34,679 nucleotides of DNA from a virus (IMGVR_UViG_2695420676_000013:1-34679), one strand, 5' to 3'. Counted from the first letter of the stretch, positions 6,001 through 12,000 are shown. Numbers: made by a program.

Positions 6001-9000
6001 TATCAATCTCCTAGTTGATCACCCTTGAGGGATATACTATCCGTTCATCTTTTATCCACCCATTAATATCTTTAGTATTCTGCCTGTTCACTGTATCCAG
6101 TATATTGCCGCTAAATTTGCGAACAGAAAAGTGAATCGTCCGTTCTCCCATTGAACATTTTATGACCTCATCATTCTTCCCTAGGAAAGAGTTCCTGAAG
6201 GAGTTTTCTCTATGGCAACTTATACCAAAAGAGCTGAAAGACGTACTTGTAGTATTCATCGGCATTATAATTCCTTTTTATAAAAAAGTGTTTACAATAT
6301 TGCATACTTGTGTTTATTGTAGCCAGAAAAAACATGCATGCAATAATATTCTATTAAAAATAGTATTGTTTTATTCACATATCATGAGCGGTATGTTGAC
6401 TCTTGTTACCAATATAGTTCACAATATGGATTAAAAAGGATAATAATATGCCAGTCATATTAAATTTTTCTAATGGAAGTGTATTGCCGGAAAATGAGCT
6501 GGAGGCTTTACGACATATTGCAAGAAGCAACCAGAATGACACTATTACTATAGGAGGCCGTAATATGAGGCTTCATTATATCCAGTTTATGGATGGTTTT
6601 AGTGTTGAGCCTATTCTTGGTGGACTTTGGGACCATCTTGGGGCAAGAGAGGCTCATCATCTCGCAGACAGCCTGACAAGACAACTTAACGGAGGTAACA
6701 CTTTTCTGCAGGCATACAGCTTATATCTGGAGCAGAGGCAAGCTGCCCCGCTTGTGCAGGAAAGCGTCATAAAAACACTACTAGATCGAATAAATTCGAA
6801 TGCATTTCCCGTTAGTTTACAAGACTTTTCCTGTACTGAGGAGCATCTTAATTGTCCGATAACGCTACATATTCCTGAGACAGGTGTTTTTGTCAGAAAT
6901 GCTCGAAATTCAGAAATATGTGCATTATATGATCAGGAAGCATTGACTGAACTTATCCTGCGTAACGCTCTCCACCCCCTCAGCCGTGACCCCTTTGCTC
7001 CAGAAATGATTATAAGCAAAGACAAGTGTCATTTTAATATAACAAAACAATGTTTTTACGCATTACCCATATACCCACTTCAACAAAACAGTATTTAAAA
7101 ATAAAAGCACAATATAAGAAGCATATTTTCAATAAGTTAATCACCATATAACAAACATATAGCGAGGGGACTATTTATGCCCAAAATATCATCAGTTGTA
7201 TCATCATGTTACCATCTGTTCAGTGAACATCAACAACTTTCAAATGAAACAACAATGACGAACTCCGTCTCCAGAAGAATTGTTCATAAAGAATATGGTA
7301 TATCTTTAAAATCCGTTCCTGTATGGTTGGCTACAGCTAAAACTCCCCTTGCTCTACTCAATGGCAGACATACAAGAAGTCACTCATTTATTATTGCAGG
7401 GACCCCAGGAATGGGAAGCAGGAGCGGAGCCCAATACTATGCCATAAACAGTGATGATAAACGCTCCCGAATAGACATTGACCCTTTATTTTTAAAAAAG
7501 TTAAATAATGCGCGAAATCAAAATAAATTTCCAATCGATGTAAAAGAAACGGTTATAAAACTACAAGGGCAAAAATTCACATGCATTGAAGATTTTCATA
7601 AAAAGTATAATGAAACCAGGTTAAAGGCCAATACCAATATCCAACAAGAACAAATTGCAGATGAAGTAAAATCACTTACATATTTGATTCCTTCAGAAAA
7701 AAAAGAGATGTGGATATATAAAAACAATGGAAAAGATAATGCAAAACCAAACTTAGGAGAGCGAGACGTAAGAATGTTCGAAAATATTAGTCCTGATGAT
7801 ACAGATAAGATAACAGGAAGGAAATTTTCAGAGTTAGGTGAGTATCTTTATTCAGGAAATGTAATAAAACTCAGTCAGTTATCAATTCGTTACTTACCCA
7901 ATATCAACTCAATCTCATTAATAGAGACAAAACAGAGTTTGTTGCTACATCGATTATATTCAGATGAAGTACTTCAGAGAAATGGAACGCTTATCCCGAC
8001 ACCACTACATGAAGAAAAATCAATTCCAGCTGACAATATAAAAACAATGCTCAACAACATACCGACTTACAAAATGTTACCGCCATTCACAGAAACACAA
8101 GGTAATTGTTCTTCTGGCGCAGCCACGTTTTTACGCAAATCAGGCGCCGAAGAAAAAGATATTCTTGCATGTAGCCCCCGAAATTATGGGCTGCATCATA
8201 ACATAAAAACATGGGACCCCTTGGTTAGAAATTAAGGATCCAAATATTATATATTTCATATAAAGCAAGAAAAAAATATTGTCTGAATAATTGTTCAGAC
8301 AATATATCCTTACATGGCACTATTATAATAAACTATTAATATAAAAACACACCAACAGAAAAAATTAAGCATCACTTGCAACAAAGGATTCTTTTTTTGA
8401 ATCAAAGTGACATTCATCTTTTCTCATAATCATTGATTCTGTTATAGGTTCTCGACTCAGAGGATGAGCTCCACCAGTTTCAACAAGTTGCACTAACGTG
8501 TCCTTATCATATAGAGAGCATATCTCAGCACCTTGTGAGTTTCTCATGAACACTCCATTCGCAGGTGTGTCCAGCGTTATCGGGTATGTCAAAAATGACT
8601 CCGGGCAAGAAAAGTGATTAGAATCCGTTCCAAATACACAAGAATTTATTTTTTCTATTAATATTTTATTACTTGTTTTATTTTCTCTGTGTTCTGCCAT
8701 GACACTCTGAAAATAGTTATTAACACTCCTTAAAAAATCGACACCTCCATTTAATTGCCTTTCCAGAGCCACAGCTCTTCTCTCCATTCGATTCTCACGC
8801 CCCAATAGCCTATCCAGTAGATTTGCCCCTATATTTCCAGACACCTGTTATTAAATATTCATTCCAAACACAGGGAGTCATAACAAACATCCACCGGACA
8901 TGACAACAAAAACCGGAGCCGGACTCCGGTTTTTGTGAACTCGTCGGCTATTTCATCCCGCCAATATTTTCCCACGTCCCGTCAGCACGCAGGATTTGCA

Positions 9001-12000
9001 GCGGTCTTACCACACACTGTATCTGCTTTTTATCCGCATCCAGTATCACCACCTGCGTGATTACCCTGGCCTGCTCCGGGATAATGCCATTCTCATCTGA
9101 CTCCAGAATGTCTGCCGGCCCCAGACGCAGTTGTGCTGTAAGTAACTCCCCGTGTTCACGGTCATCATGCTTTCCGTACCCGCACAGACGCTGCATAAGT
9201 TTTTTTAGTACGTTCATGTCATTCTCCTGTTCTGCCTGTATCACTGCCCACTTCATCCAGCCCCTTAACATCCTGCCACGGCCCGTCACCAAACCTGACC
9301 TGCAAATGCTGAAACAGCCCCTGAACCTGTGTGGCATCTTTGGGGTCAAGAAAGGTCAGTCCGGTGATGAGCGCACCATCTGTACCCGGGAACCAGCCAT
9401 TGCTGTTTGTCTCAATAATGCTCGCCGGCCCCAGACGAAAACGGATTTGTGTCTCCCCCGGGTCGCCCTTCGGTCCCTGAGGTCCGGTTGCCCCCACCGG
9501 GCCAGCCGCACCTGTTTCTCCTTTCGGTCCCTGTGGGCCTGCCGGGCCTGCCGCACCGGTATCTCCCTTTGGACCCTGTGGACCTGCATTTCCCGTCAGA
9601 CCGGTCTCTCCCCGCTCTCCCCTGTCACCTTTCGGCCCCTGCGGGCCTGCCGGACCAGCATCACCTGCCGGTCCCCGTTCGCCGGTTGCCCCGACAGGGC
9701 CGGTGTCACCGCGCTCTCCCTTATCACCCTTCGGCCCCTGAGGACCCGCGGGCCCCTGTTCCCCCTTTGGCCCGGGAGGTCCCACCACGGTGGGGATTCG
9801 GTTTACGGCCTCTTCCGCCGCTATCCTGCTTTGTTCCGCTGACTGTGCGCTTTCTGCTGACTCCCGGGCTTTTTCTGTTGCGGTCGTTGCATCCCTGGCT
9901 GCATTACCGGCTGCACTTTCTGCCGTCTTTCTTGACAATTCAGCTTCTGCTGCACTTTGTGATGACTCACTGGCTTTTTGAGCGGCCGCAGAAGCCGAGG
10001 ACGAGGACGCATCCTCTGACTGCTTTGCTGAGGCTGCACTTTCTGCCGCCTGCCGGGCTGACTCCGATGCCTCCCCTGCTGAAGTGTCAGCATTTGCAGC
10101 GCTCTCTTCTGCCTGACTGGCTGATATGCCGGCATTCCTCGCTGACGTCTCCGCCTCTCCGGCATTCTTCTTCGCCTCCTCAGCGTGACGCGCCACCTCT
10201 TCCACCATCTGTTCAAAACGGCGCAGTGCCTCCGGCCGGGCATCCTCCTCCGTCATGGCACCGAGAAAATCATTCAGCGTACCCGGCTGAGAATCTTCAT
10301 ACACGGTGATGGTCCCGGCATGTGACGGCGGGACCCCTTCCACCAACAGAATAACGCTGTACTGACCGTACTCAACGTCCATGCTGTAACGCCCGGTTTC
10401 ATCCGGATTTTCTGAGGCCAGCGTGTTCACCACCACCGTGCTGCTGGTCCGTCTGGCTTTCAGTTGAATGGTGCAGTTCTCTACCGGTTTTCCTGTGCCG
10501 TCTTTCAGTACACCTGAAATCTTTACTGCCATATTCACCCCACAAAAAAGCCCGCCTGAACCGGCGGGCTGTCATAACACTGTGTTACCTGGCTAATCAG
10601 AATTTATAGCCGACACCCACGATGAAACCGTCAGTGCGCCAGTCGCCACTGCCGGAACCTTCATAAGCAAGGTCAATAACCACCGTCTCTACGGGACTGA
10701 ACTGAATCCCGGCATTCCAGGCCGGCGACAGATGACGCGCAGTATGACCATCACTGGCGGTGGTGGTCTCCTTCACATACCCCGGTTTCACTTCATCACG
10801 CCGGTAATCCTGAACACTGTCAGACCAGCGGGTGTACGCCATCCCGGCCATGCCATAGAGACTGACCCGCTCACTGAGCTGCCAGACAGGGCCGGCCATC
10901 AGACTGACATAACGACCGCGCAGGCTTTCATAATGGAAGGTATTTTCACCCGTCTTCATCGTGTCACTTTTCTTCACCGATGCATAACTCAGCGCGACAA
11001 TGCCGCCCAGGTGATCCGTGAACTCATAACGGTATTTCACATTAATCCCTTTTAAATCACCTGCACGCGCACCGGTACCGGACAATGCCGGTACGCCGCC
11101 CGGGTGAACCTGAGCATATCCCACGGAAAATGCACCGTGTCCGCTTTCAGCCTGTGCAGGAAGGGAAATGCCTGTCAGCAGTGCGGTCCAGAATAAAATG
11201 GCTCCGTATAAATGTCGCATGATGACCTCTCGTTTTCAGTCAATAAAAAAGGCACCTCCTGAGGTGCCCGTCCGGGTTAATAAACCGTCAGCTGATACTG
11301 ATCCCTGCCGTGGATTTTTTCATGACCACAACCAGTAAATCACTGATGTACGTTGTCGGCGTCCAGTTGTTCGCACCGGCCGACGACACATTAAACGTCA
11401 GGGTGACATGACCCCGCCCTGCCGGCATATCTATCACCGATGAGAACACCCGGCTGACATCCGTTGCCGGTTCATGGAAAATCTCAACCCCGTTCTTCAG
11501 CACCTGCAGCTTACAGGTGGAATACCAGTACGACTGCTGATTCGGGCTGTTGAAATTCTGGTGTTTCGTCCCGTGAAACAGCACCGGGGGAATGATAATC
11601 TGCCGGTCGAATCCCTGGTCATCGTAAACTGTGACGGTTACCGTCCCGCTGGCATAACTGTTATTCCGGGGAAAGGCTTTCCCCACCGTCTTCACCAGGT
11701 CGCCTTCAATCTGGTTTGCAGACAGTTTCCCTCTGATGACACAGTTCTCGTTAATGGTGACATTATTGAGCGTGCCGGTATTCGCGGTAATTGCTCCGCT
11801 GATATCCGCGTTCCTGGCTGTCAGCTTCCCTTCCGGCGTCAGGGAAAACGTCGGGGGGTTGCCGGATGACGTGATACTCGCCGCAAACAGACGCTTCAGG
11901 AACACGTCGTTCATGAACAGCTGATTCCCCTGCGCCACAAATAACGGAGTGCTGTTGCCGCTCTCCGGATTTATCATCGCGATACGGTCAGCCAGCAGCA

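Follow-up and report, generated by a model that had tools for sequence, protein, structure and literature searches.

We analyzed a stretch of viral DNA of 34,679 nucleotides (IMGVR_UViG_2695420676_000013; hereafter the window) carrying a side tail fibre gene and a small gene directly downstream of it, both on the minus strand, as are all features described below. The fibre gene (9219..10532) encodes 437 aa from its ATG, although the ORF list takes a GTG at 10538, two codons earlier, as the start. The protein is composed of PfN, a coiled coil (116 aa), a collagen region (111 aa) and PfC. PfN (residues 1-133; 10134..10532) matches phage_tail_N (PF08400, 225 bits, E 3e-67) and is homologous to the N-terminus of lambda Stf; the first 94 residues resemble the 'tail fiber protein' chain of PDB 9e7m (chain Ta)/9mgh (E 9e-50). 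The Gly-X-Y region, placed by translation at residues about 250-361 (9450..9785), matches Collagen (PF01391) at residues 251-309 and further, and its DNA contains 99-nt periodic direct repeats. The fibre ends in a PfC knob (residues 363-426; 9255..9446; PF06820, 124 bits). PfN, coiled coil, a single collagen domain and PfC together place the fibre in the EPclA class of collagen-like prophage tail fibres, and it has the same architecture and length as EPclA itself (Ghosh 2012, PMC3368898). In that study, experiments on the PfC of the Sakai orthologue ECs2717 showed that it mediates trimerisation and nucleates the collagen helix, rEPclA expressed alone in BL21(DE3) was a trimer, and purified Col-PfC refolded by itself after heat denaturation. 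The study covered the fibre only, and text searches of it turned up no stand-alone downstream PfC gene.

The small gene (8948..9217), recognized in the ORF list and by Pfam and PHROG 576, consists of 89 codons plus TAG, with its ATG at 9215-9217. Because the junction reads GGA GAA TGA C ATG, it begins 1 nt past the fibre stop, in agreement with the preliminary description. The span given there, 8948-9349, corresponds to the maximal ORF opened by a TTG, which overlaps the last 131 nt of the fibre, and had to be reduced to the gene proper. An AGGAG Shine-Dalgarno sequence (9224..9228), located 6 nt before the ATG, falls within the last codons of the fibre; the phage 434 record annotates a ribosome_binding_site for its small gene. 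RNA folding revealed a terminator-like hairpin with a U-run 11 nt past the small-gene stop (8906..8936; -27.9 kcal/mol, z -4.6), and none of 200 shuffled sequences was equally stable. A terminator scan located another such hairpin after lom, directly upstream of the fibre gene (10549..10570). Phage 434 has a terminator annotated at the position equivalent to the former, and its record also annotates the equivalent of the latter. The fibre and the small gene form a two-gene unit bounded by terminators.

In a single BLASTP comparison of the 89-aa protein with the 437-aa fibre, small-protein residues 29-88 aligned with fibre residues 364-425 (23/62 identical, 37%; 37/62 positive; E=2e-11). PF06820 (Phage_fiber_C), whose gathering cut-off is 25 bits, matched both proteins over all 64 positions of the model, at 119.2 bits in the small protein (residues 28-89; 8951..9136) and 123.8 bits in the fibre. 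These results confirm the earlier proposal that the fibre's C-terminal domain is duplicated as a separate, abutting gene. At the DNA level, the copies retain a direct repeat of 52 nt with 71% identity (9076-9127 and 9386-9437, 310 nt apart), inside which a 14-nt block coding RLGPA, CGTCTGGGGCCGGC, is identical. Homology of the knobs starts at about QLRLGPA, and G33, P34, G44, P47, I53, T54, L59, L73, Q74, D79, G80 and W82 are invariant between the paralogues; this shared core argues for the same fold in both knobs.

The first 27 residues (MNVLKKLMQRLCGYGKHDDREHGELLT; 9137..9217) are private to the small protein, as judged by DNA comparison and pN/pS. At the DNA level they do not resemble the collagen-coding region beyond chance (shuffle p about 0.9), so only the knob domain was duplicated. 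An origin of this segment from decayed collagen triplets was likewise rejected, the local alignment being no better than shuffles. A Cys/His-rich stretch follows a predicted helix at residues 3-12. AlphaFold2 monomer models of the two copies, built from 14- and 18-sequence alignments, were of low confidence (pLDDT 52.0 and 52.6) and mostly beta, with the helix at 3-12 in the small protein. The phi24B authors also state that AlphaFold gave no confident model for the PfC domain. Neither the PfC domain nor the small protein had a match in a PDB sequence search, the matches to the fibre being confined to the collagen and the N-terminus, and NCBIfam contained no model matching the small protein.

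We then compared the small protein with its relatives. Residues 1-89 align with positions 1-89 of the 89-position profile of PHROG 576 ('tail fiber protein', 89 aa; E 3.8e-59), making it a member of that family, and PGAP names it 'phage tail fiber C-terminal domain-containing protein'. Its orthologues Sp5 ORF68, 933W L0122, phi24B gp59 and phage 434 gp24 are all 89 aa long and 90-98% identical, and occupy the same position, with the same 4-nt junction, behind a collagen-like fibre ending in PfC. Relative to them, the window copy has Tyr for Cys at residue 14, with nothing material otherwise; it resides in a long-tailed prophage and adjoins an NleG/EspW effector locus. The curated phage 434 record calls the small gene a 'tail fiber assembly chaperone'. 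Mondal 2016 describes the gene as an 89-aa polypeptide of the fibre C-terminus only, and places Sp5 ORF68 among the late genes classed as non-essential. The pair is thus already catalogued and remarked on in the literature. Beyond the Sp5 deletion, no functional test of the small protein came up in text searches of the 2025 EHEC-phage paper, Ghosh 2012 and the collagen folding paper, or in a literature search on phage 434.

Phage records with PfC at an identity of at least 80% comprised 296 fibre-type and 294 small-type ones; the two types are thus found together in about 294 of 296 records, and the small gene never occurred without the fibre among the phage records compared. The pair is found in long-tailed phages (434, phi330 and the window prophage) and in short-tailed ones (933W and phi24B), and it has survived in a decayed prophage remnant of C. 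rodentium. A profile search of 1.84 billion representatives produced 91 matches, nearly all of them partial sequences from one set of Escherichia proteins. The sole credible distant relative (P0234) carries four PfC-like units in tandem within one collagen-containing polypeptide, indicating that PfC units can sit serially on one fibre. Long multi-stretch matches with SprB/PKD/SdrD-type repeats were dismissed as repeat-driven noise. Species-representative genomes yielded 3 loci only. Loci on a 725-bp 'Xanthomonas pisi' contig and on a 'Clostridiales MAG' contig were set aside as evidently misbinned E. coli phage DNA; the latter contig carries an intact EPclA-type fibre gene, the C-terminal 78 residues of which (knob plus tail) are identical to those of the window's fibre.

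To assess conservation, we examined 82 copies of the locus. The junction, ACAGGCAGAACAGGAGAATGACATG, was unchanged in 79 of them, whereas the RBS, the ATG and the 89-codon length of the small gene were kept in all 82, with no truncated or frameshifted copy. Across 60 distinct alleles (pS about 0.12), pN/pS of the small gene was 0.11 overall, dropping to 0.04 in the PfC part and rising to 0.29 in the N-terminal 27 residues, the most variable portion of the protein. By contrast, the fibre's own PfC showed a pN/pS of 0.22-0.28 at similar pS. Purifying selection is therefore stronger on the small knob than on the fibre knob. Two peptides unique to the small protein, VITQVVILDADKK and ADGTWENIGGMK, were the only ones found in the covered part of the published phi24B virion peptide table, apparently at about 3 spectra each versus 2267 for the fibre; contaminants such as Lom are acknowledged there by the authors. 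Given its own RBS and ATG, its co-occurrence with the fibre, the purifying selection and the trace peptides, the small gene encodes an expressed, selected protein and is neither a scar nor a silent cassette. The earlier suggestion of a recombination scar at the cluster junction is not supported, given the intact RBS, ATG and length in 82/82 copies, the strong purifying selection, and a small gene that accompanies the fibre in Stx phages of siphovirus and podovirus type alike. What is new in this analysis is the small gene's own AGGAG and ATG, the terminator-bounded two-gene unit, the co-occurrence with the fibre, a purifying selection stronger than that on the fibre knob, and the trace-level phi24B virion peptides.

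Taken together, these findings suggest that the small gene encodes a paralogue of the trimerising knob at the fibre's distal end, expressed and under selection, that acts in trans on the fibre tip, a reading that we hold tentatively, at somewhat less than an even chance. The protein would be translated from its own RBS and ATG on a late two-gene transcript common with the collagen-like fibre, might form a small PfC-type oligomer, and could work in trans on the knob of the fibre itself as an accessory or assembly factor, in the genomic position that tfa has behind lambda stf. It may thereby raise the yield or stability of the fibre tip, or aid its receptor engagement, without being required for folding, and would be largely missing from, or sub-stoichiometric in, the finished virion. 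The tip-module role offered in the preliminary description is possible for the small protein, of which published phi24B virion proteomics shows only trace peptides. Trimerisation of the fibre without the small protein, the non-essential status of Sp5 ORF68, the trace level of the phi24B virion peptides and a sequence that resembles neither Caudo_TAP nor a known chaperone family count against the trans-acting reading. Overall, the small protein is most likely a dispensable partner acting on the fibre tip, by a mechanism that we infer.

A more specific form of this reading, possible but doubtful, is that the separately encoded knob represents a distinct tail-fibre accessory class, a mimic that docks on, or transiently templates, the distal trimerisation/receptor domain of the fibre. 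The private Cys/His-rich N-terminus might then contribute, and assembly or receptor engagement of collagen-like fibres would be tuned by a Tfa-like role that arose via tip duplication instead of via the Caudo_TAP fold.

As proposed by Mondal et al. 2016, the small gene might instead be a silent reservoir that stores an alternative knob, recombinable onto the fibre tip. The identical RLGPA block within the direct repeat could support such exchange, and rare natural chimeras exist: P0063 (4 member sequences), in which collagen repeats are joined directly to a small-type knob, and P0183, in which the small N-terminus and RLGPADILES sit on a fibre-type knob. However, such chimeras number only a few, compared with intact pairs in the thousands, and sequence divergence beyond the short block is too great for homologous exchange to be efficient. 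Neither an invertase nor a recombinase lies next to the pair, and the small copy is translated and has a start of its own, features that set it apart from tip-switching cassettes of the shufflon or Mu G-segment type. A rarely used cassette would also be expected to drift, yet the small PfC is under tighter constraint than the fibre knob, and the RBS, ATG, private N-terminus and exact length are kept in every copy; the phi24B peptides show that it is translated. We therefore consider a reservoir improbable.

We judge similarly improbable a function away from the phage's own fibre, in which a soluble knob, set free at lysis or produced inside the cell, would bind the receptor of the fibre or another host or bacterial target, serving as a decoy against adsorption to debris, an exclusion factor, or an adhesion-related moron like its effector neighbours. 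Dispensability for Sp5 propagation, a conservation exceeding that of the fibre knob, as if the target were invariant, and a position bordering the effector-rich NleG/EspW locus are all in keeping with such a function. But the gene lies within the fibre's terminator-bounded late unit, abutting the fibre translationally and not behind a promoter of its own, and among phage records it never occurs without the fibre. By inspection, moreover, the charged N-terminus MNVLKKLMQR... lacks a signal-peptide hydrophobic stretch.

That the small gene is a functionless relic of a tandem duplication, retained by linkage to the fibre, is very unlikely: the Sp5 deletion had no phenotype and the gene has no known function, but a pN/pS of 0.04-0.11 across the alleles sampled, the absence of frameshifted or truncated copies and retention across two virion architectures all argue for selection. 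Least credible, and largely refuted, is a programmed +1 frameshift or read-through that fuses the two ORFs in the manner of lambda G/GT and leaves some fibres with two serial knobs. In its favour, the small gene occupies the +1 frame, which in 73/82 copies is uninterrupted over the 46 codons preceding the ATG, tandem knobs in cis occur in the distant relative, and the phi24B authors included such fusions in their search database, labelling the hit 'Spike or just gp59?'. Against it, the last 46 codons lack a slippery heptamer, a homopolymer run and a prfB-like site, 6/82 copies have the upstream frame closed 10-13 codons ahead of the ATG, Mondal et al. report no frameshift signal, the phi24B hits in the covered part of the peptide table include only peptides internal to the small protein and no junction peptide, and the strong RBS and ATG suffice to explain translation.

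A collagen-like fibre with a small companion is present in most Stx-converting and effector-carrying lambdoid phages of EHEC/EPEC, and the targets of the fibre and its role in the spread of Shiga-toxin genes are a question raised in the phi24B cryo-EM preprint. Recognition of the companion as an expressed, strongly constrained paralogue, not a scar or a cassette, narrows the hypotheses; the gain is incremental, because the feature was already catalogued. If the small protein does act as a mimic of the tip, collagen-like fibres would be tuned in most Stx-converting phages.

Finally, we compared the pair with known fibre partners. As in lambda stf-tfa and in the fibre-Tfa pairs of Mu and P2, the side tail fibre gene is followed directly by a small gene belonging to its late unit, here with a 1-nt gap. 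Unlike Tfa, which belongs to Caudo_TAP (PF02413), the small protein duplicates the tip domain of the fibre itself (PF06820 alone came back from a Pfam scan at E<=1), and the fibre with which it is paired folds on its own. A genuine tfa with an stf 3' remnant is present elsewhere in the window (4240-5384; Caudo_TAP gene, 4240-4824). Peptidase_S74-type domains, found in endosialidases and T5 pb1, are C-terminal, covalently attached and auto-cleaved intramolecular chaperones. The small protein likewise corresponds to a C-terminal element linked with trimer formation in a fibrous protein, but it is encoded by a separate ORF with its own RBS and ATG and has no Peptidase_S74 match in Pfam. An intramolecular chaperone-like role, as raised in the preliminary description, is thus at odds with a separate polypeptide that matches neither Peptidase_S74 nor Caudo_TAP, and with a fibre that folds and trimerises without it (Ghosh 2012). 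In Alteromonas phages, a fibre and its cognate small partner, a 'chaperone cap' (PMC10579305), move jointly as a host-recognition module between virion types of unrelated phages, just as the fibre/small-gene module is common to the siphovirus and podovirus forms of Stx phages. Fibre function depends on partners such as these caps and T4 gp38, however, and they are no paralogues of the tip, whereas the small protein described here is dispensable and homologous to the tip.

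On the minus strand, J (11288-14764) is followed by lom (10597-11220), the gene for the 437-aa collagen-repeat side tail fibre (9219-10532), an 89-aa ORF (8948-9217; the small gene) and, last, an effector-rich stretch. The fibre stop and the small gene start lie in the sequence GGA GAA TGA C ATG, bearing out the preliminary description, which placed the start 1 nt past the fibre stop; the span 8948-9349 given there for the gene is instead the longest ORF of the frame, starting from TTG and overlapping the fibre 3' end. AGGAG is found six nucleotides ahead of the ATG, inside a 25-nt junction identical in 79 of 82 copies, and the gene is invariably 89 codons long (80 IMG/VR loci, the window and two annotated records). 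Terminator-like hairpins behind lom (10549-10570) and behind the small gene (8906-8936; -27.9 kcal/mol, z -4.6) indicate that the fibre gene and the small gene form one bounded unit, which is also annotated in the phage 434 record.

The fibre consists of an N-terminal domain (PfN), a coiled coil, one collagen domain and a C-terminal knob (PfC; Pfam PF06820, Phage_fiber_C), the EPclA architecture defined by Ghosh et al. 2012 (PMC3368898). Residues 1-94 match the 'tail fiber protein' chain of PDB 9e7m/9mgh, and the NCBI pipeline names the protein 'prophage tail fiber N-terminal domain-containing protein'. The Sakai orthologue is a dumbbell-shaped trimer, and PfC is trimeric alone or as a thioredoxin fusion; Col-PfC refolds rapidly after heating, indicating that PfC nucleates the collagen helix. 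These proteins were made in BL21(DE3) or JM109(DE3) without a phage partner (Ghosh et al. 2012, PMC3368898).

The similarity between the fibre end and the small protein, proposed in the preliminary description as a shared domain, is real and statistically solid. Pairwise BLASTP aligned small-protein residues 29-88 with fibre residues 364-425 (E=2e-11, 37% identity, 60% positives). Both proteins match the full 64-position PF06820 model at ~120 bits each (cut-off, 25 bits), and 12 core positions (G33, P34, G44, P47, I53, T54, L59, L73, Q74, D79, G80 and W82) are invariant across the paralogue groups. DNA-level likeness of the knob copies is limited to a 52-nt stretch (71% identical), in which an identical 14-nt block encodes RLGPA. 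No collagen-region origin was detectable for the first 27 residues of the small protein (shuffle p ~0.9). Monomer structure models of both copies are mostly beta, in agreement with the CD data of Ghosh et al. 2012, at a pLDDT (~52) too low for fold comparison. Residues 12-22 of the small protein (window ~9152-9184, minus strand) are Cys/His-rich, reading LCGCGKHDxREH in most alleles; position 14, Tyr in the window, is the most variable column. In a trimer, this stretch could conceivably form a metal site.

The small protein has its own family, PHROG 576 (full-length match, E 4e-59), and the NCBI pipeline name 'phage tail fiber C-terminal domain-containing protein'. Its gene is called 'tail fiber assembly chaperone' in the curated phage 434 record and L0122, with too long an annotated start, in 933W. 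In the gene-by-gene analysis of Sp5, a short-tailed Stx2 phage, its counterpart ORF68 is among the non-essential late genes (Mondal et al. 2016). Pfam, PHROGs, RefSeq annotation and the literature already cover the pair, which is thus not new; modest value remains in the function of the small protein as a question.

The small-protein family is essentially limited to prophages of E. coli, E. albertii and Citrobacter rodentium. At a minimum of 80% identity, fibre-type PfC was found in 296 and small-type PfC in 294 of 50,697 phage records, and nearly all PfC-bearing records are Stx-converting or EHEC phages. Since long-tailed phages (434, phi330 and the window prophage) and short-tailed ones (933W and phi24B) carry the pair, the collagen-knob end and its small partner move jointly between virion architectures. 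Even in a decayed remnant from C. rodentium, the small gene, NleG and what is left of a collapsed fibre are still neighbours. E. coli Stx-phage-type sequence also occurs on a 725-bp contig of a 'Xanthomonas pisi DSM 18956' assembly (L086; small gene at 90% identity) and a 'Clostridiales' MAG contig (L088; full EPclA fibre, lom and J end), almost certainly through contamination or mis-binning in public records.

An exhaustive profile search gave one credible distant relative, P0234 (565 aa, on a 6.6-kb metagenomic contig; L083, 3505-5202); outside enterobacterial prophages it yielded no other credible family member. P0234 has four tandem PfC-like units ending ...ILRVRQADGTWKEIPAIKG, then collagen repeats (57.6 bits against PF06820; for the C-terminal half of the domain, hhalign gives a probability of 95%). 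PfC-like units can thus be arranged serially on a single fibre, which makes stacking of a free knob on the fibre knob conceivable without being proof for the window system. The small protein is a possible tip module.

The effector cluster (6162-8844) lies between the small gene and an stf/tfa-like pair (4240-5384, minus strand). It comprises a 90-aa 'bfpT-regulated chaperone-like protein' (6162-6434, plus), NleG (216 aa; 6448-7098, plus), EspW (352 aa; 7177-8235, plus; named from a 99.9% identical RefSeq annotation, with no Pfam or PHROG match) and, on the strand opposite the other effectors, a 159-aa NleG-domain ORF with a GTG start (8365-8844), possibly N-terminally truncated. In the pair, a 194-aa tail fibre assembly gene of the Caudo_TAP family (4240-4824, minus) is directly preceded by a 186-aa ORF matching only the last ~165 positions of lambda-Stf-type profiles (phrog_295, 631-794 of 794). 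The pair resembles an stf 3' end left behind together with tfa. With the effector locus lying between it and the present fibre, the layout is what insertion of the collagen-knob module plus effectors into an older stf-tfa, or recombination with one, might produce. Several E. coli genomes match the effector stretch at 99.9% identity, but among the complete E. coli genomes of the collection the best match to the fibre region is at most ~97-98% identical, a contrast that points to a mosaic. A phage integrase gene (1668-2765, plus) is abutted by a dihydrouridine synthase gene (542-1579, minus), placing the integrase at the tail-fibre end of the prophage, not the far end; its position suggests either that the prophage border has been rearranged or that a second or degenerate element is present.

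Evidence for translation comes from the supplementary proteome of a 2026 cryo-EM preprint on phi24B (bioRxiv 10.64898/2026.04.10.717836). Its tables list two identified peptides, VITQVVILDADKK and ADGTWENIGGMK; both are unique to the small protein (gp59) and agree exactly with the window sequence, indicating that the protein is made. The gp59 signal is very small beside the 2267 spectra of the fibre. Hypothetical products of a frameshift joining fibre and gp59 ('Fusion_6159_FS1/FS2', with the label 'Spike or just gp59?') had been among the authors' search targets; in the table of single bands, EA1829, which has a late number, is the only band where the entry for the fusion is higher than that for the fibre. 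Small proteins of 74 and 220 aa are present in EA1829 too, a pattern that would fit free small protein. The main text does not discuss gp59. We read these supplementary data as a small protein that is translated, co-purifies at trace level and is no more than a possible virion component.

ALTERNATIVES tested comprised frameshift fusion, reservoir, known chaperone families and structure. The stand-alone knob is under tighter constraint than the fibre knob: across 60 distinct small-gene alleles, mean pS was 0.124 and pN 0.014 (pN/pS 0.11; 0.04 in PfC and 0.29 in the N-terminal 27 codons), whereas the fibre's own PfC gave 0.22-0.28 at similar pS. A scar, or a silent cassette that is seldom used, would be expected to show the opposite, and the preliminary suggestion of a recombination scar is wrong. 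Mondal et al. 2016 suggested that ORF68 may store fibre variation as an intragenomic reservoir, and rare knob chimeras do exist; a handful of these against thousands of intact pairs, with no recombinase nearby, leaves a reservoir unlikely. In one chimera, P0063, collagen repeats lead directly into a small-type knob through a deletion between ...GERGPA and RLGPADILE; in another, P0183, the small-protein N-terminus and RLGPADILES precede a fibre-type knob. Each may be a true recombinant or an artefact of assembly or frameshift. Action of the small protein on a target other than its own fibre is similarly improbable, and that the gene is a relic is very improbable. Frameshift fusion of fibre and small gene is hardly credible: the +1 frame, which holds the small gene, does stay open over 46 codons in most copies, but there is no slippery site, the frame is closed 10-13 codons upstream of the ATG in six copies, and no frameshift signal was found for ORF68 (Mondal et al. 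2016).

We propose, with somewhat less than even confidence, that the small protein acts in trans as a partner of the fibre tip and is dispensable. Homology, expression signals, linkage and selection are results of the present analysis; PfC trimerisation, small-gene dispensability and translation were established on orthologues in published studies; an interaction with the fibre is inferred. The small protein would be produced in concert with the fibre from one shared message, would probably oligomerise via its PfC fold, and would act on the fibre knob during or after assembly. It has no match to Peptidase_S74, the intramolecular chaperone domain, or to Caudo_TAP, so the earlier 'intramolecular chaperone' label does not fit. 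As a partner of the fibre, the small gene would occupy the position that tfa has behind stf in lambda.
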